A DNA stretch of 5,473 nt, from the IMG/VR virus record IMGVR_UViG_2778261058_000013. One strand, given 5' to 3'. Positions 1 to 5,473 of this stretch are shown here, piece by piece (positions within the stretch are counted from its first letter, which is position 1; the number at the start of each line of letters is the position of its first letter). A model generated the notes under the pieces. The model made no database searches. It was not told where the DNA came from and worked only from the letters and a program-made list of their open reading frames with translations. The DNA is from a virus (lineage: Duplodnaviria; Heunggongvirae; Uroviricota; Caudoviricetes). Position numbers and translations under genes: made by a program.

Positions 1-1401
1 CAGGCGGACAAGCTGCCCCGCCTTGACTTTTATCCCCTCCGTTTTGAGGAATGTCTCAACGTCCATTTCTCCGGTGCTGATTGCCACCGTGCGCCAGTGT
101 TTGATCTCCCTGTTGCCGCCGTCCTTTGCCCCCTGTAATTTCCCGGAACCGTTAAACAGCGTATAGGCTGACGTGGACACCTCCCGCGCGTTTCCGGCCT
201 GGCCTATTTCATCCAGGGGTAAAAGCCCGTCATTGTGTGCCTCTGCTTCGTTGGCGATACCTAACGCTGTGCCGTACCAGGTCAGCCGCTGCGCGTCCGG
301 CTCTCCCCATAAACTTGATGCGATGTTCTGCGTTGTGGTCTTACCTGCCGATGACTGTTCGAAAAGATGTACCCCGAAGCCGTCAGCGCCCACCAGCCCG
401 ATTAATGGTGCAGATAACGATACCGCCACACCCAGCATCATGGACGGATTACCACCAGCCAGCCGCGCAACGGTATCGCGCCAGCCCTCCGCCGTTCCTG
501 CCACGGAATAACCATTAACAGCAGCCGTTTTTCCGGTAAACAGGACTGGCTTTTCGCAATCACCAATGACCGAACCGTCCGGCATGATGTACGCGCCAAA
601 ATGCCAGCCCGTTGTTGTGCTTAACTGCCATTCCTCATGGTTTCCGCTTAACTGCATCCAGTCAGCCAGGATAGCCCTGTATTTGCCGTTGGTTGTCACG
701 TTCAGGCCGTGGTCTTTCAGCAACCGCCAGCCGTCACGGTCGCCAATGCCCCCGCACGGAACCGCCATTGTGATGACTTCATGGTTTGCGGGTTTCTTCC
801 AGCGCATCACGCGGTAATGCTCTTTGCCGATTGTCCCCGTTCCCAGTAGTTCAAGCGGGGAACATAACCACGTCTCAGGCCGGATAATTTCGCCTGACTG
901 CTTGTCAACTTTTGGCGTTACCCAGAAAACACCATCGGCGCGGCTTTCAACGCGGGGCTTTAATTCATCATCGCTATAGCTTCCTGTGGCTTTTTTCTTT
1001 AAGGGCAACACCAGACTTTCCCCGCGCTCGTATTCGTCTTTCAGTCGGGCAAGCTGTGGTGTCCAGTCCTCCAGTAAATCGCCGTTCTCGTCACAAAAAC
1101 AGGCTTCCTTAACACCAGCCACTGCCAGCAGGGTTTCAATCTGTAGCGCCAGTTTGTCATCCAGTTTTCCGGCACGTCTGACGATGGCGCGTGACCGACC
1201 CTCATCCACAATACGCAGGTTTTCCAGATTACCCAGGTCACGCCGTCCGAGATAAACAGGTGGTATTTTGTCGCCGCGCTTTCTGGCTTCTCCGCCCTGC
1301 ATGTAATGCTCTGCGTGGCTGTATGCGTCATCCCCCGCAAAAATCACTGCATCCTCGCCTTTATCTTTCGGTAACAGTTTTACGTTCGGCGCCAGTTTCA
1401 T
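1..1401 (-). CDS. Replication protein, primase/helicase-like with a P-loop NTPase domain (possibly DUF927/toprim-type); 3'-partial, continues beyond position 1
   Basis: The minus strand frame from 1401 to 1 has no stop codon (467 codons, checked by hand); it is absent from the ORF track because no stop falls in the window. ATG 1401..1399 overlaps the stop of the upstream gene (ATGA), with GGGGAAAGG just upstream. Translation begins MKLAPNVKLLPKDKGEDAVIFAGDDAYSHAEHYMQGGEARKRGDK and contains a Walker A-like SSAGKTT (about 334..354) and Walker B-like LLPLDEIG (about 202..225). The plus-strand ORFs across this span are antisense shadows. Confidence 0.8.
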   Translation of the reverse strand, partial: MKLAPNVKLLPKDKGEDAVIFAGDDAYSHAEHYMQGGEARKRGDKIPPVYLGRRDLGNLENLRIVDEGRSRAIVRRAGKLDDKLALQIETLLAVAGVKEACFCDENGDLLEDWTPQLARLKDEYERGESLVLPLKKKATGSYSDDELKPRVESRADGVFWVTPKVDKQSGEIIRPETWLCSPLELLGTGTIGKEHYRVMRWKKPANHEVITMAVPCGGIGDRDGWRLLKDHGLNVTTNGKYRAILADWMQLSGNHEEWQLSTTTGWHFGAYIMPDGSVIGDCEKPVLFTGKTAAVNGYSVAGTAEGWRDTVARLAGGNPSMMLGVAVSLSAPLIGLVGADGFGVHLFEQSSAGKTTTQNIASSLWGEPDAQRLTWYGTALGIANEAEAHNDGLLPLDEIGQAGNAREVSTSAYTLFNGSGKLQGAKDGGNREIKHWRTVAISTGEMDVETFLKTEGIKVKAGQLVRL

Positions 1402-1712
1402 TTTGCCTTTCCCCGTTCACGAATAATTTCACGTACTGCCTTAATGCGTTCCATACCTGTAACGCGCATGATTCTGTCGATGTCGCTTAAGTTCGCTGGT
1501 GGTGCTTTGCTTACCAGGGTGAATTCACTCTCAAAACGCATATGAGACGACACGCAGGGATGCGCATAACCTTCGCGGATATAAGTCACGCGAAAATCGT
1601 CAACGGTTTTTATCGTTATTCGTCCGCCGTATTTATCTTTGAAAATATCGTCGGGGCGGATTTCAGGCCGAGGGAGGCCGCTGGCAGTAAAGCCAGAATT
1701 TTTCTTTTTCAT
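1398..1712 (-). CDS. Hypothetical protein (104 aa), translationally coupled to the downstream primase-like gene
   Basis: ORF-track ORF with ATG at 1712..1710 preceded by GAGGAA and an 8-nt spacer; starts MKKK; its TGA stop overlaps the primase ATG (ATGA at 1398..1401). No family recognised. Confidence 0.6.
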   Translation of the reverse strand: MKKKNSGFTASGLPRPEIRPDDIFKDKYGGRITIKTVDDFRVTYIREGYAHPCVSSHMRFESEFTLVSKAPPANLSDIDRIMRVTGMERIKAVREIIRERGKAK

Positions 1713-1782: not shown

Positions 1783-1926
1783 TTAACAGAGTGCTGAAAG
1801 CAGAAAGTAAATACCCCCCCGCTCGGTGTTATTTTCGGTTAATTCATCCAGTACCGTTTTTAATTCAAGCGCCCTGATTAATGCATTCTCAGAATGAATA
1901 AGAACATCGAAAGGGATTTTATCCAT
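1783..1926 (-). CDS. Hypothetical small protein (47 aa as written), possibly frameshift-truncated at a G7 tract; one extra G would give 79 aa ending at 1718
   Basis: ATG 1926..1924 preceded by GGAGGA with an 8-nt spacer; translation MDKIPFDVLIHSENALIRALELKTVLDELTENNTERGGIYFLLSALC. A C7 run at 1814..1820 (G7 on the coding strand) lies inside the ORF. Below the ORF-track length cut-off. Confidence 0.35.
   Translation of the reverse strand: MDKIPFDVLIHSENALIRALELKTVLDELTENNTERGGIYFLLSALC
1814..1820 (-). repeat. Homopolymeric G7 tract (C7 on plus strand) inside a small ORF
   Basis: Read directly: ataCCCCCCCgctcgg on the plus strand. Confidence 0.95.
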
Positions 1927-2152
1927 GGCTTACATCCTCCGGGAATTTTCTTCTGTAACGCGCCTCTGCAACATATTCCGCATAGTCCGACGCAATATTG
2001 AGAATCTCCACACCCTCTGACCTGTAGCCACTGGTACTGATAAGAAAAAATGCGGCTTTCATCATGTCGGCAACGCATAACAACGCATCGCCTGTATGTT
2101 CCGGTGCGCCATCAAATTCCTGTTTCAGGGCATTAAAACGATCATCACGCAT
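1919..2152 (-). CDS. Hypothetical protein (77 aa from ATG 2152; the ORF-track frame extends to 2179); may be the C-terminal part of a fused roughly 155-aa protein
   Basis: Frame open 2179..1919. ATG at 2152..2150 sits 2 nt downstream of the G8 tract, which could act as a G-rich ribosome-binding site, and overlaps the TGA of the upstream ORF. Translation MRDDRFNALKQEFDGAPEHTGDALL...EDVSHG. Start choice is uncertain. Confidence 0.4.
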   Translation of the reverse strand: MRDDRFNALKQEFDGAPEHTGDALLCVADMMKAAFFLISTSGYRSEGVEILNIASDYAEYVAEARYRRKFPEDVSHG

Positions 2153-2384
2153 AACCCCCCCCATTTTCACAATCAGCAATCAGGATGGCTTTAGCCTCAT
2201 TCAGTGCCATATCAGCACTAAATTGCATAACAGCCAGTGAGTGAGGAACGAAAGCCCCGGCATATTCTGTTTCGCTGGTGGCGTGCTTATGTGCCCTGTC
2301 CGCGATAACAGAAATATCAATCAGCGCGTGCATTAGCGTTTTGATGGCTTCGGCGGCTGCGTCCGGCGTGTTTTTATTGCACAT
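2145..2384 (-). CDS. Hypothetical protein (79 aa)
   Basis: ORF-track ORF; ATG 2384..2382 preceded by AGGGGG with a 6-nt spacer and overlapping the 3' end of the upstream 68-aa ORF; translation MCNKNTPDAAAEAIKTLMHALIDISVIADRAHKH...CENGGGYA, ending just after the G8 tract. Confidence 0.5.
   Translation of the reverse strand: MCNKNTPDAAAEAIKTLMHALIDISVIADRAHKHATSETEYAGAFVPHSLAVMQFSADMALNEAKAILIADCENGGGYA
2155..2162 (-). repeat. Homopolymeric G8 tract (C8 on plus strand) at the junction of two small ORFs
   Basis: Read directly: ataaCCCCCCCCatttt on the plus strand; on the coding strand it encodes the GGG near the C-terminus of the 79-aa ORF. Confidence 0.95.
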
Positions 2385-2580
2385 GGTGCACCCCCTGGCG
2401 AATACGGGCGGCGAATACCATCACGCAGCCAGCCGGTGATTGCTGACGGGCTTCCTGTTCGCTGGTGGCCTCAATGGTAATCATGCGCGGTTGTGCCGTG
2501 CTCAGAGCGATAAAACGCCAGATATATTTATTCAGGTTGTGCGAGTCCCGCCCTTGCGGGTGTGTGGTATGATTTAACAT
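2374..2580 (-). CDS. Hypothetical protein (68 aa), first gene of the minus-strand small-ORF operon
   Basis: Internal ATG at 2580..2578 of the long ORF-track frame 2374..3492, preceded by GAGGT with a 5-nt spacer; translation MLNHTTHPQGRDSHNLNKYIWRFIALSTAQPRMITIEATSEQEARQQSPAGCVMVFAARIRQGVHHVQ. The longer upstream extension is rejected. Confidence 0.45.
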   Translation of the reverse strand: MLNHTTHPQGRDSHNLNKYIWRFIALSTAQPRMITIEATSEQEARQQSPAGCVMVFAARIRQGVHHVQ

Positions 2581-2676
2581 AGCTACCTCGATACTGTTGC
2601 TATCGTTGGTGGTTAGAAGCCCCGTTACTGCTCCTACAGTGCGGGGTTTCGTCGTTTCTGTGCCTTGCATTAACAA

Positions 2677-2759
2677 GGTGTAAGACACAATGTAAAATAC
2701 AAGTGTCTTACACGTCAAGCCTTCAAAATAATTTTTTTTCGTGTATATTGTCTTACACC
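2677..2759. promoter_or_regulatory. Divergent promoter region with three copies of a 12-bp operator-like motif (core TGTCTTACAC)
   Basis: GGTGTAAGACAC at 2677..2688 (inverted) and GTGTCTTACACG at 2703..2714 form a palindrome with a 14-bp spacer; a third copy TTGTCTTACACC lies at 2748..2759. On the plus strand a putative -35 TTCAAA (2722..2727) and -10 TATATT (2744..2749) are 16 bp apart; on the minus strand a putative -35 TTGACG (2718..2713) is followed by TACATT. A T8 run sits at 2732..2739. Confidence 0.5.
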
Positions 2760-2779
2760 AACAACATAAGGAGTTAGAC

Positions 2780-2959
2780 ATGGCAACAGGTCCAAAGAAT
2801 GCAAAATCACAATCTGTAACTGCACGTATTGCCCATGAAATTATTGAAGGCATGGAAAACGTGAAAGAAGAAGGCGAAAGTACAGGGCAGTTTATAAGTG
2901 CAGCCATGCGCGGCGAGATCAAACGCCGCCAGCGTCGCAAGGCCAAAGAGCAGGAGTAA
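2780..2959 (+). CDS. Small basic protein (59 aa), possible ribbon-helix-helix-type DNA-binding regulator
   Basis: ATG at 2780 preceded by a consensus AAGGAG (2768..2773) with a 6-nt spacer; translation MATGPKNAKSQSVTARIAHEIIEGMENVKEEGESTGQFISAAMRGEIKRRQRRKAKEQE. The ORF-track start at GTG 2741 lies inside the promoter and is less likely. The RHH assignment is a guess from the N-terminal pattern. Confidence 0.6.
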   Translation: MATGPKNAKSQSVTARIAHEIIEGMENVKEEGESTGQFISAAMRGEIKRRQRRKAKEQE

Positions 2960-3016
2960 CCATCACTAGCGCCGTGGAGTGATGAACTGTGGCGCACAGG
3001 GTTACAGGTATATACG

Positions 3017-3214
3017 ATGACTGACAAATCATTAAAGAAATTATCCTCATCCAGGAAAAAACAACGCAAAAATGCGGTAAGCGAACAAGAACAGGAAAGA
3101 TTCGCACCTTGTTCGTTTGCTCTTGAGAAATTCCTTAAAGAGTACAGGCGCACAAAAATGGGATCGCATGCCTGGAAAACATCGCAGCATGGCGATACTA
3201 AAGAGCAGGAATAG
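3017..3214 (+). CDS. Hypothetical small basic protein (65 aa)
   Basis: ORF-track ORF; ATG 3017 with a weak AGGT 7 nt upstream; lysine/arginine-rich N-terminus; same strand as and immediately downstream of the 2780..2959 gene. Confidence 0.4.
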   Translation: MTDKSLKKLSSSRKKQRKNAVSEQEQERFAPCSFALEKFLKEYRRTKMGSHAWKTSQHGDTKEQE

Positions 3215-3317
3215 CCCACCAGCAAGCCAGCACACTGATCACATTGCCCACCAGCCGCAAATGTGGCATTGTTGGCTATGCTCATGCGTTGGGGATAACG
3301 TGTAGCTTGTGTCGAGG

Positions 3318-3346
3318 GGCCACCGTAGCGGGTGGCCTTTGTTTTG
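3318..3346 (+). terminator. Rho-independent terminator for the plus-strand small-gene pair
   Basis: Perfect 7-bp stem GGCCACC (3318..3324) / GGTGGCC (3331..3337) with 6-nt loop GTAGCG, followed by TTTGTTTTG. Confidence 0.5.
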
Positions 3347-3362
3347 CCTGTTATCCGGCAAT

Positions 3363-3392
3363 TGTGGCGCTTCGCCACACGGTTGATATAAT
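3363..3392 (+). promoter_or_regulatory. Candidate promoter: perfect palindrome next to a consensus -10 hexamer
   Basis: 7-bp inverted repeat TGTGGCG (3363..3369) / CGCCACA (3373..3379) with loop CTT, followed by consensus TATAAT at 3387..3392; weak -35 TTGTGG at 3362..3367 with a 19-bp spacer. Confidence 0.3.
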
Positions 3393-3466: not shown

Positions 3467-3496
3467 GTTATGTTCATCGCGTTACGCCTCACACCA

Positions 3497-3703
3497 TTAC
3501 GCAGCCGTTCCGCGCGCTTCTTCCTCGCGCTCTTTCAGCCAGGCCAGCACTTCATCTTCATACCAGCCAACACGGCGCAGACCGATTTTGAAGCCTTTCG
3601 GGAATTTTCCGGCGTTGATCATGTCCTGTAGCGAACTGTCTGCCTTGATGCGCAGAATATTTTTTACTTCCTGACGGGTAAGAATTTTTCTGATTACTTC
3701 CAT
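3497..3703 (-). CDS. alpA: AlpA/Vis-family phage transcriptional regulator (excisionase-like helix-turn-helix protein)
   Basis: ORF-track ORF; ATG 3703..3701 preceded by GAGGT with an 8-nt spacer; translation MEVIRKILTRQEVKNILRIKADSSLQDMINAGKFPKGFKIGLRRVGWYEDEVLAWLKEREEEARGTAA has the size (68 aa) and pattern of the AlpA family, and the gene sits in the expected position beside the integrase. Confidence 0.85.
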   Translation of the reverse strand: MEVIRKILTRQEVKNILRIKADSSLQDMINAGKFPKGFKIGLRRVGWYEDEVLAWLKEREEEARGTAA

Positions 3704-3872: not shown

Positions 3873-4115
3873 TTACCGTTTCCACTTCTTAGGTCGCCCA
3901 CCACATTTAAGGCTGGTGGGCCTCAGCACCTTGTCGATGCTTTCAGCCAGATTTTTCGATGCGCCACGCGAGCGTAAAAAACTGACTACCTCGTGTTTTG
4001 TGGGGGCTGTTGATTTGTCTTCCGGATCGTATGTTGACCAGAATTCACGATTTGCCATTAACGCCAGTTGCAGCCCTTCGCCGCAAGCAGGGGATACCTT
4101 TTCATTGAAAAACAC
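3873..4115 (-). CDS. Hypothetical small protein (80 aa) with a basic GRPKKWKR C-terminus, between the integrase and alpA
   Basis: ORF-track ORF with a GTG start at 4115..4113 preceded by a consensus AAGGAG (4129..4124) and an 8-nt spacer; an alternative internal ATG gives MANREFWSTYDPEDK. Translation ends ...LKCGGRPKKWKR. Confidence 0.5.
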   Translation of the reverse strand: MFFNEKVSPACGEGLQLALMANREFWSTYDPEDKSTAPTKHEVVSFLRSRGASKNLAESIDKVLRPTSLKCGGRPKKWKR

Positions 4116-4231: not shown

Positions 4232-5473
4232 TTACACGGCACGGATACCCCTTTTACCACTGGCTATGGTCACTCCGGTAGCTGCGGCCTCTACAAATTC
4301 CCCCCACCAGCGCATAAGCACCACGCGCTTTTCCAGGTAGTTACTTCTGTTATATGCCCGCCTTACCTCGTTCGTGTCCACGTGTGCGAGTGCGGCCTCG
4401 ATTACGTCCGGCTCGAATCCTTCCTCGTTCGCTGCTGTACTGAATATGGCGCGTAATCCGTGAGACACCAGCACACCAGCGTATCCCATCCGGCGCAATG
4501 CAGCGTTAGCGGTCTGGCTGCTCATTGGCAGCATTGGATTTTTAAGGCTGGGAAAAACATGTTCCCTGTGTGCGCTGATTGGCTTCATGGTTTCCAGTAC
4601 AGCCATAGCCTGACCGCAAAGGGGGATCACGTGGTCACGGCGCATCTTCATGCGTCCGGCTGGAATCGTCCATGTTTCGGCATCGAGATCTATTTCTTCC
4701 CAGCGTGCGGCGGCTGCTTCGGCTGGGCGTGCTACGGTCAGCAGTTGCCACTCAATCAGCAATCTGGTTTGCCGTTCTATGCTGGCGACCGATAAATCGT
4801 GCATTAGCTGCGGTAGCTGTTCCGGTCGGATGGTTGGCATGTGCTTTTTGGTGGGTGAGGGGAATGCCTTGCGGACGTTCGCGGCGGTGTTGATGTCAAT
4901 CAGCCCACTGTTGGCAGCAAAATCCATCACTTCATTGATGCGTTGTAAAACGCGTTTCAGGGTTTCCAGGTTGCCGCGTGCTTTAATGGGGGTGAGTATC
5001 TCAACAAAGCGGCGAGCTGTGAGGGTATCTATTGGCGTGTTTCCGATGTACGGGAATACGTATTTTTCCAGGGATCGCCAGATATCCTTAATCGTGTTGT
5101 AAGCCAGATTCTGGCCTTTTTTCATCTCGTACCAGTCCGAGGCAACTTTTTCGAACGTGTTGCCCTTTTTCCGACTCTCTGCTTCACGTTTCCGGCGTTC
5201 GTGGTCCTGTGGGTCAACTCCCTTCGCTATGAGTGACCTGTATTCATTCCGTCGTTCTCTGGCATCGGACAGGGAAACATCATTCAGCGATCCGAGGCTG
5301 ATGATAGTCCGTTTTTTATCTGCCGGGCGGTAGTACGTAAAACGCCAGATTTTTGATCCGGAGGGTTTCACCAGAAGAAATAATCCTCCACCATCCTGCA
5401 GGGTGTATTCCTTTTCCCCTGGTCGTGCGTTTTTGATCTCCGTAATGGTTAGTGGGGTGGTTTTTCGTGCCAT
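4232..5473 (-). CDS. int: Site-specific tyrosine recombinase, P4-type phage integrase (413 aa, complete)
   Basis: ORF-track ORF; ATG at the window edge (5473..5471). The N-terminus MARKTTPLTITEIKNARPGEKEYTLQDGGGLFLLVKPSGSKIWRFTYY is typical of the arm-binding domain of P4-like integrases; the C-terminal domain has the HxLR motif (VSHGLRAIF) and a catalytic-Tyr context (RRAYNRSNYLEKR). Confidence 0.95.
   Translation of the reverse strand: MARKTTPLTITEIKNARPGEKEYTLQDGGGLFLLVKPSGSKIWRFTYYRPADKKRTIISLGSLNDVSLSDARERRNEYRSLIAKGVDPQDHERRKREAESRKKGNTFEKVASDWYEMKKGQNLAYNTIKDIWRSLEKYVFPYIGNTPIDTLTARRFVEILTPIKARGNLETLKRVLQRINEVMDFAANSGLIDINTAANVRKAFPSPTKKHMPTIRPEQLPQLMHDLSVASIERQTRLLIEWQLLTVARPAEAAAARWEEIDLDAETWTIPAGRMKMRRDHVIPLCGQAMAVLETMKPISAHREHVFPSLKNPMLPMSSQTANAALRRMGYAGVLVSHGLRAIFSTAANEEGFEPDVIEAALAHVDTNEVRRAYNRSNYLEKRVVLMRWWGEFVEAAATGVTIASGKRGIRAV

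Follow-up and report, generated by a model that had tools for sequence, protein, structure and literature searches.

A predicted ribbon-helix-helix protein encoded antisense within an eta/kil-like reading frame as candidate repressor of EcCICFT073-type phage-inducible chromosomal islands

Introduction

Phage-inducible chromosomal islands (PICIs) occur commonly in Gram-negative bacteria and carry virulence and defence genes between cells. What keeps such an island silent is the question raised by the locus considered here: AlpA is the only regulator known for the Gram-negative PICIs, and their global repressor was described as unclear (PMC6092414). The locus lies in a stretch of 5,473 nucleotides from the IMG/VR virus record IMGVR_UViG_2778261058_000013 (the window, i.e. 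the whole stretch of DNA that was analysed), which by its gene order is a Gram-negative PICI of the EcCICFT073 type. Opposite to an operon for an Icd/Kil-like peptide and replication genes, the window carries two small open reading frames, ORF1 and ORF2. It appears fairly probable from sequence comparison that the first of these codes for a ribbon-helix-helix (RHH) repressor, which would bind three GTG-N5-CAC operators in a control region of about 200 bp and silence the Kil/replication operon. The two ORFs and the ribosome-binding site of the first are as follows.

2780-2959, plus strand: ORF1, 59 residues, YlcI/YnfO family, predicted RHH protein, candidate operator-binding repressor
2768-2773, plus strand: Shine-Dalgarno sequence AAGGAG of ORF1, matching the consensus, 6 nt ahead of the ATG
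3017-3214, plus strand: ORF2, 65 residues, with a weak AGG at 3006-3008 and two predicted helices

An earlier note on this DNA had described ORF1 and ORF2 as transcribed divergently from each other, which is not the case: both lie on the plus strand, in the same reading frame, and they diverge only from the minus-strand operon starting at 2580. The consensus ribosome-binding site that the note gave to ORF1 is there, and both products are basic, as it had stated (isoelectric points 9.69 and 9.87, with 12 and 16 lysine plus arginine residues for ORF1 and ORF2, respectively).

ORF1: family and predicted fold

ORF1 belongs to the YlcI/YnfO family, as documented by its match to the NCBIfam model NF041551 (DUF3950; 66.8 bits with a cut-off of 30, E = 1.2e-18) and by the RefSeq label of an identical protein. 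Its matches in PHROGs are to families of unknown function; Pfam-A gave no match, nor did a tblastn search of 50,697 phage records. Homologues form 113 clusters across the Enterobacterales, and no more than 94 clusters (50% identity) in a library of 1.84 billion representatives.

The AlphaFold2 model of ORF1 (predicted local distance difference test score, pLDDT, 88.3) is extended at residues 10-17 and helical at 19-28 and 35-58, i.e. a strand, a helix, a G-E-S turn, a second helix and a variable basic tail. The strand stretch alternates between polar and apolar positions in the alignment, and in the turn G32-E33-S34 both E33 and S34 are invariant among 36 sequences. The turn conforms to the G-x-S/T/N pattern of RHH proteins, and the model contains their strand-helix-helix arrangement of about 45 residues. 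Aligned with Arc by hhalign, residues 12, 14 and 16 of ORF1 come to lie opposite Arc residues 9, 11 and 13; the score is weak (probability 5%) and serves for the register only. In the structure of the Arc-operator complex, Q9, N11 and R13 make the base contacts. ORF1 is most likely an RHH DNA-binding protein according to this model, in line with the earlier suggestion that its N-terminus is compatible with such a fold. Structure prediction and profile searches had been proposed as a check at that time; they yielded the RHH model and the NF041551 match for ORF1, no match in Pfam, and no confident fold for ORF2.

Candidate operators and promoters upstream of ORF1

Three 11-bp sites of the form GTG-N5-CAC, overlooked by the earlier note, lie between 2678 and 2758. 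There are no others in the 5.5-kb window, and they are the only noteworthy repeats upstream of ORF1. Together with the promoter-like sites found by a consensus scan, and with two hairpins further downstream, they form the following set.

2678-2688, inverted relative to O2 and O3: candidate operator O1, GTGTAAGACAC; overlaps the start site of the predicted minus-strand promoter; a position of about -101 or -111 (relative to the start of ORF1) is kept in related loci
2703-2713: candidate operator O2, GTGTCTTACAC; lies in the spacer of the predicted minus-strand promoter and abuts its -35 element; position -76 is kept
2748-2758: candidate operator O3, TTGTCTTACAC; overlaps the end of the -10 element and the predicted start site of the ORF1 promoter; position -31 is kept
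2722-2749, plus strand: promoter-like site of ORF1-ORF2, with TTCAAA (2722-2727), 16 nt and TATATT (2744-2749)
2689-2718, minus strand: promoter-like site of the Icd/Kil-like replication operon, with TTGACG (2718-2713), 18 nt and TACATT (2694-2689)
3315-3340, plus strand: terminator-like hairpin with a T run behind it, located past the end of ORF2 and kept in relatives from E. coli
3438-3465, plus strand: second terminator-like hairpin, ahead of the convergent alpA

The two predicted promoters stand back to back, the minus-strand one being internal to a long minus-strand ORF. Both are accompanied by conserved sequence: the plus-strand -10 element is kept as TATACT or TATATT across genera, and the predicted minus-strand -35 element is kept beside O2 in nearly all loci. 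Likewise, the O2-type site precedes a conserved C(G/T)TCA(A), and the O3-type site comes after ATACTG or ATATTG.

The operator core follows the ORF1 strand across loci

Scanning one genome from each species yielded 68 loci from many genera of the Enterobacterales, including Xenorhabdus, Pectobacterium, Serratia, Yersinia, Enterobacter, Dickeya, Proteus, Morganella and Providencia. Where the flanking genes were detected, the layout in common is Icd-like gene, ORF1, a variable stretch, AlpA and integrase, the Icd-like gene lying about 220 bp upstream of ORF1 and in opposite orientation to it. In nearly all loci the sites are found at positions of about -101 (or -111), -76 and -31 relative to the start of ORF1, with constant flanks, GTG and CAC, or CTG and CAC in the third site. 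The 5-bp core between the flanks is the same or nearly the same among the sites of one locus, and it differs from locus to locus along with the ORF1 strand (residues from S10 onwards), as illustrated by the following pairs.

Strand SQSVTARI: core TCTTA
Strand SQMTTVRI: core AAATA or ACATA
Strand SQALKARV: core TGGCC
Strand SKKLEARV: core TCAGC
Strand SQQLNARF: core AATCG
Strand SLQVSVRL: core AACAC
Strand SKRFDVRV: core TCGGA
Strand SQKMSARV: core GCACC

Altogether at least 15 such strand/core pairs, or specificity types, can be distinguished. Residue 14 shows the highest mutual information with the core among 56 non-redundant loci (2.58 bits, 98% of the column entropy), followed by residue 12 with 2.16 bits (96%), in contrast to the equally variable helix-A residues 27-31, whose values amount to just 53-62% of the column entropy. 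This contrast matters because the operators lie near the gene, such that linkage alone would yield some association. S10 and R16 of ORF1 do not vary, and neither do the GTG and CAC flanks. By sequence comparison, the repeated operators thus correspond to strand side chains, in the manner of an RHH protein.

The cores vary with ORF1 and not with AlpA, the Icd-like peptide or the primase, which marks ORF1 as the probable reader of O1-O3. The window and locus L073 encode an identical AlpA (WP_042972395.1), L072 and L074 have both AlpA (WP_000447941.1) and primase in common, and the Icd-like peptides of the window, L072 and L076 are near-identical; in each of these comparisons the operators are different and track ORF1. 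Conversely, loci from E. coli and Xenorhabdus with integrases only 24-37% identical have the same strand and the same core. Judging from these loci, ORF1 is very probably the operator-binding regulator of this island family, and most likely its repressor.

Several genomes carry two to four islands, and no two islands of one genome are of the same strand and operator type: none of the 23 pairs matched, where 2.3 would be expected (P = 0.07). Co-resident islands were found in Xenorhabdus mauleonii (L004, L024, L049, L053), in X. innexi (L021, L042, L056, L061) and in 11 further genomes. That the strand/operator types act as immunity groups is only suggested by these sequences.

The long minus-strand frame

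The second feature that had escaped the earlier note is the antisense position of the module inside a minus-strand ORF of 372 codons, which runs through ORF2, ORF1, both predicted promoters, the operators and the plus-strand terminators. Its coordinates and those of the gene ahead of it are given here.

3497-3703, minus strand: alpA (PF05930, E = 4.5e-8); its activator role in this PICI family is taken from PMC6092414
2374-3492, minus strand: eta-like long ORF, 372 codons; its GTG start at 3492 comes 4 nt past the alpA stop, and its end corresponds to the Icd/Kil-like peptide

alpA is convergent with ORF1-ORF2 and immediately upstream of the long ORF. The only family match of the 372-residue translation is an Icd-like domain at residues 323-366 (NF033153), and Pfam-A returned no match for it. 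NF033153 is also matched by the Kil peptide of P4 (E = 1.6e-21), the domain being located at residues 146-193 of the 199 residues of P4 eta. Accordingly, the window presents an arrangement of the eta/kil type, namely a Kil/Icd-like end of a longer ORF that begins just after an alpA/vis homologue. In RefSeq, parts of the long frame are annotated variously as a long Icd-like protein or as an ash-family pseudogene.

How strictly the frame is kept can be judged from the other loci. In the window, the frame antisense to ORF1 coincides with that of the Icd-like gene, as it does in 22 of the 32 loci for which an Icd-like match was obtained, and the third codon positions of this antisense frame fall on the third codon positions of ORF1. 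It is free of stops across ORF1 in all 74 loci (74/74); synonymous-codon resampling gave a mean probability of 0.42 per locus for an open frame across this gene. Over the 200 nt upstream of ORF1 it is stop-free in 62 of 73 loci, as against 0/73 and 1/73 for the other two minus frames, with about 5.5 stops each, and over the 100 nt downstream in 61 of 73 loci, as against 4/73 and 5/73. The substitutions are expressed here as the ratio of nonsynonymous to synonymous rates (dN/dS) and the mean BLOSUM62 score of replacements.

ORF1: plus frame dN/dS 0.26, mean BLOSUM62 +0.11; minus frame dN/dS 0.34, mean BLOSUM62 -1.24
ORF2: plus frame dN/dS 0.36, mean BLOSUM62 -0.07; minus frame dN/dS 0.50, mean BLOSUM62 -1.19

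Selection at the protein level is placed on the plus strand because dN/dS of the plus frame is lower and its replacements are milder. The plus-strand genes thus seem, from these comparisons, to be constrained as proteins, and the minus-strand frame seems to be merely kept open.

The part of the island between alpA and the Icd-like gene is highly plastic, and the frame is nonetheless kept. Loci L073 (2142-2702, minus strand) and L074 (1965-2702, minus strand) carry 52-111 extra in-frame codons between the Icd-like start and the conserved domain, and in L078 a gene with an AntA domain stands between alpA and ORF2. The stretch ISESGFYKLI in the long frame of EcCICFT073 may resemble the end of a Bro-N domain.

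A proposed switch

It can be rationalized that the invariant S10 and R16 would read the invariant GTG and CAC flanks, an assignment of residues to bases that is itself a proposal, and that the variable residues 12 and 14 would read the variable 5-bp core. ORF1 dimers bound to O1 and O2 would block the internal minus-strand promoter and keep Kil and the replication genes silent; silencing of the island by bound ORF1 is proposed because the start site of that promoter is covered by O1 and its spacer by O2. Bound to O3, ORF1 would limit its own synthesis, since O3 covers its own predicted start site, and ORF2 would be co-transcribed with ORF1 from a cassette insertion site. On induction, by analogy with P4, the helper phage would turn on alpA, whereupon upstream transcription, with translation coupled to it, would extend through the long frame, bypass the repressed internal promoter and collide with transcription of ORF1. 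The published induction of EcCICFT073 by overexpression of AlpA alone agrees with this scheme (PMC6092414). The position of the module in an eta/kil-like frame therefore changes the probable mode of derepression.

The wider formulation, that the repressor of Gram-negative PICIs is this 59-residue RHH protein, encoded antisense in a translated eta-like frame connecting alpA with the replication operon, that the helper silences it by collision of AlpA-driven transcription and translation, bypassing its operators, rather than by inactivation, and that the types are immunity groups letting several islands share a cell, is put forward tentatively and is less likely than not to hold. With regard to the proposal of a repressor module in the earlier note, position of the operators and covariation speak for ORF1 in this role, but not for ORF2, which is missing from all 68 loci of other genera and was modelled with a pLDDT of 62.7.

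A number of points weigh against ORF1 as the repressor. DNA binding by ORF1, the two promoters with their start sites, and repression have all been deduced from sequence. The structure was modelled as a monomer only, and in the single-chain model the strand is extended but unpaired, while RHH dimers pair their strands into an antiparallel sheet; a profile search of PDB sequences with ORF1 gave noise only, and a Foldseek search of the PDB gave nothing. The operators are situated 30-130 bp from the strand codons, such that linkage adds some covariation, and the contrast between residues 12/14 and 27-31 argues against linkage alone without removing it. Strand and core do not map strictly one to one, as SQKVQARA occurs with GATTC, GAGTC and TACTC, and SQMTTVRI with both AAATA and ACATA. 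The SQTVAARV type of E. coli is without a site at the ORF1 start, its third site being found beside O2, and hence autoregulation is not universal. Finally, a leader RNA may provide part or all of the immunity, as in P4, and this leads over to the first of the alternatives.

Alternative explanations

ORF1 may bind the sites in another capacity, as a late shut-off protein like Cro or Arc, a fine-tuner of the Kil/replication promoter or an activator of one or other of the two promoters, with immunity residing in the leader RNA of the Icd/Kil-like gene and in Rho-dependent termination. This is considered unlikely, albeit deserving of discussion. The two features concerned are these.

2374-2580, minus strand: Icd/Kil-like peptide, 68 residues (NF033153, E = 6.2e-20), first gene after the internal promoter and end of the long ORF
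2585-2650, minus strand: 5' leader of the Icd/Kil-like gene, two hairpins around a conserved CUCUAACCA stretch

That small proteins of this kind need not be plain repressors is exemplified by Mnt of P22, which represses Pant and activates its own promoter. The leader hairpins (fold z-score -3.15) are kept with compensatory changes at 10 of the 14 predicted pairs among 22 loci, and the sequence may reflect control at the RNA level like that by CI/seqA of P4, or a termination site. At the homologous position, P4 immunity is indeed RNA-based (PMC10111431). In addition, AlpA alone suffices to induce EcCICFT073, where overexpression of alpA by itself led to uncontrolled replication of the island (PMC6092414). 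On the other hand, nothing matched when the whole window was searched with Rfam (E up to 1), so that no C4, isrK or CI-type RNA was detected, and the start site and spacer occupied by O1 and O2 are typical repressing positions. Furthermore, ORF1 is the sole gene transcribed against the lytic direction, and its many specificity types look like immunity groups. A role of ORF1 in maintaining the silent state is hence preferred.

It is quite improbable that ORF2, or both plus-strand ORFs, are shadow frames of the long minus-strand ORF without a functional protein. The plus-strand ORFs do occupy the antisense frame that shares third codon positions, in which stops are rare, and ORF2 has a weak ribosome-binding site, a fold of low confidence and a narrow distribution. 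For ORF1 this explanation is excluded by fold, family model, ribosome-binding site and operator covariation; ORF1 is a real gene and not a shadow frame. ORF2, which always follows 57 nt after ORF1, is intact in 16 of 16 loci with 11 distinct alleles, in free combination with four ORF1 types. Its core FAPCAFxLEKFLKEY is kept, its basic N-terminus and two alternative tails vary by whole codons, its plus-frame replacements are far more conservative than those of the minus frame and reach values like those of ORF1, and stop codons become abundant in the plus frame past its end. ORF2 matches phrog_21027, a PHROG without assigned function (E = 1.7e-43), and its relatives make up 37 clusters, all from Escherichia. 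The AlphaFold2 model with its two helices is too uncertain for a fold search; Pfam, NCBIfam and PADLOC gave no match, and a profile search of the PDB gave noise. ORF2 is probably a lineage-specific accessory protein, expressed in the silent state and outside the conserved switch.

A type II toxin-antitoxin system, in which an RHH antitoxin and a small basic toxin would stabilise the island, is very improbable. The pair is not conserved as such, as ORF1 and the operators persist in the 68 non-Escherichia loci that have no ORF2, and helix B of ORF1 is followed by a variable basic tail of about 10 residues, with no toxin-binding region. For ORF2, Pfam, NCBIfam, PADLOC and the PDB gave no match and the two-helix model is of low confidence, and of the three sites two belong to the divergent promoter.

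That O1-O3 are bound by AlpA, a known DNA-binding activator of the island family (PMC6092414), by the Icd-like peptide or by a host protein, with ORF1 a mere neighbour, is scarcely credible, given the different cores beside identical AlpA and primase or near-identical Icd-like peptides, the same core and strand in E. coli and Xenorhabdus beside divergent integrases, and at least 15 cores for which a host factor could not account. The toxin-antitoxin pair, the shadow ORFs, and AlpA or the Icd-like peptide as binder of the sites were all considered and rejected.

The KEQE junction repeat

The earlier note had recorded that ORF1 and ORF2 both end in KEQE, encoded by the same 11-nt string, and had left open whether this was a small duplication or chance. 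The string, AAAGAGCAGGA, is present at 2945-2955 and 3200-3210, with exactly two copies in the window and none in 200 shuffles (0/200), which disposes of chance. The likeness around it extends over 32 nt at 75% identity (2930-2961 versus 3185-3216).

2930-2961, plus strand: junction repeat, copy 1, at the end of ORF1 (KEQE and stop); start of an element of about 45-55 nt ahead of the next small-ORF cassette
3185-3216, plus strand: junction repeat, copy 2, at the end of ORF2 (KEQE and stop); left part of the element only

The junction element of about 45-55 nt, AAGAGCAGRARTAACC...GCGCCGTGGWGTGA, follows ORF1 in the E. coli islands. As KEQE starts this repeated junction, the identical C-termini mark a cassette boundary; the repeat stands as a junction between cassettes and not as a functional motif. 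In L076 (E. coli PSS-15, 3133-3370) a second full junction comes after ORF2, followed by a plus-strand ORF of about 60 residues that starts with MMDAQKLD. Small-ORF cassettes thus accumulate behind ORF1, and the minus-strand frame of L076 is still open despite the added cassette, with 470 codons. A clean excision product, with ORF1 joined straight to the sequence after ORF2, was looked for and not found.

Island identity and neighbouring genes

The minus strand of the window carries, in this order, a P4-type integrase, an ORF of 80 residues, alpA, the Icd-like peptide, small ORFs, DUF4222 and a DUF927 primase. The rows that have not been given above are the following.

4232-5473, minus strand: P4-type integrase, from family search
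1398-1712, minus strand: DUF4222, from family search
1-1401, minus strand: DUF927 primase, from family search

The segment 2580-3500 is 99.8% identical to an island that adjoins tRNA-Pro and yejM in E. coli IGC_RcoliRes_1.1, and weaker matches to the control region occur in 1172 of 5426 complete E. coli genomes. The near-identical island of IGC_RcoliRes_1.1 goes on with genes for SSB, ProQ/FinO, PerC and terS. The features by which a PICI is recognised are thus assembled, i.e. int, alpA, primase and a late module in the same direction at a fixed chromosomal site.

EcCICFT073 itself (NC_004431.1, 1377749-1389210, with coordinates from the supplement of PMC6092414) has the same gene order and the same ORF1/ORF2 module as the window. 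Its ORF1 homologue is of the SQALKARV type and an ORF2-like gene is also there, the operators are found at the expected offsets (GTGTGGCCCAC twice, CTGTCCCCCAC once), and the open minus-strand frame comprises 434 codons. The locus tags of the module, C_RS30120 and C_RS30800, are out of series with those of the neighbours, which suggests that the annotation was added later. In the literature on YlcI/YnfO/DUF3950, on RHH proteins of PICIs and on a repressor of EcCICFT073, with most subscription journals outside the coverage, no account of the ORF1 gene was found. A putative transcriptional repressor of EcCIMP1, which silences virulence genes of C. rodentium (PMC11773190), was set aside, as it belongs to a different island and the part of that paper available offers no tie to the ORF1 gene.

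Two further regions of the window call for comment. The 80-residue basic ORF between int and alpA (3873-4115, minus strand) is conserved among the relatives from E. coli (WP_141219638.1), and weakly related ORFs are present in loci of Serratia and Xenorhabdus; Pfam, NCBIfam, PHROGs and PADLOC contain no family that matches it. A PADLOC scan of the window gave no match. At 1783-2384 (minus strand), a 154-residue protein of some relatives (phrog_2512) is broken into the overlapping ORFs 2145-2384 and 1919-2179. The break occurs at a C run (2153-2161), and in L076 the gene is a single coding sequence of 465 nt. The adjacent ORF 1783-1926 (minus strand) has 47 residues, compared with 77 in its relatives, and crosses a second C run (1813-1820). 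These splits may be frameshifts, sequencing errors or natural variants.

Significance

If ORF1 is the repressor, a function would be provided for the YlcI/YnfO (DUF3950) family, and the silence of the toxic Kil-like gene and of the replication genes would be accounted for. A natural set of at least 15 protein-operator pairs with orthogonal specificity would be at hand, and the locus would represent a rare case in which an open frame of the opposite strand is maintained around a repressor gene and its operators. The proposed switch is directly testable in the model island EcCICFT073, which has the same module.

Comparison with known systems

Mnt and Arc of P22 are small RHH proteins as well, with a strand motif alike ([LV]R[WI]P[RH]EV), and mnt, like ORF1, is divergent from the operon it represses, with back-to-back promoters and probable self-regulation. 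Beyond the motif there is no detectable homology to ORF1. P22 has one 21-bp operator, in contrast to three 11-mers spaced by 25 and 45 bp upstream of ORF1, and it is an antirepressor that is controlled there, while the operon opposite to ORF1 opens with a Kil/Icd-like peptide and replication genes. Moreover, the ORF1 gene lies antisense inside another reading frame. Omega of pSM19035 differs in another respect, as it binds cooperatively to contiguous arrays of heptads, as opposed to the three separated 11-mers considered here.

The left operon of P4 has the same order of elements, namely an alpA/vis homologue, a long ORF, an internal promoter (PLE, whose analogue is predicted here) and a Kil-type end; in nearly all of the loci compared here the long frame is kept free of stops through the promoter region. 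The eta gene of P4, which is coupled to the alpA homologue, has a constitutive promoter within it; Kil is a truncated eta, and transcripts that come from the upstream late promoter are protected from termination by the translation of eta (PMC10111431). A search of P4 for an ORF1 homologue found none (best E 0.2). The immunity factor of P4 is the CI RNA, in contrast to the protein gene and operators on the opposite strand in the window.

In the Stl/Rpr system of Gram-positive PICIs such as the SaPIs, the repressor gene is likewise divergent from the replication/packaging operon of the island, and many specificity types exist. Stl, however, is a larger helix-turn-helix protein, transcribed with int and inactivated by proteins of the helper phage, whereas ORF1 codes for a 59-residue RHH protein, is transcribed against int and alpA, and belongs to an island family that is induced through the activator AlpA (PMC6092414). 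The module of the window is thus not of the Stl/Rpr type.

Closest by family are YlcI and YnfO of E. coli K-12 (DUF3950; prophages DLP12 and Qin). YlcI matches NF041551 as well (37.6 bits versus 66.8 for ORF1) and has the same strand-helix-GxS-helix pattern, such that K-12 YlcI is probably an RHH protein, too, judging from its sequence. No pairwise BLAST similarity was found between ORF1 and YlcI; L068 and L069 represent intermediate forms. The setting of ylcI is a different one: the gene adjoins cos and nohD in a prophage of the lambdoid kind, and its upstream region is free of GTG-N5-CAC sites. In K-12 (L070, 6252-6446) it is divergent from nohD across the cos site of DLP12.

A small RHH repressor at divergent promoters is of a known kind; what would be new is its occurrence in a Gram-negative PICI, its position antisense in an eta/kil-type frame and its diversification into many types.

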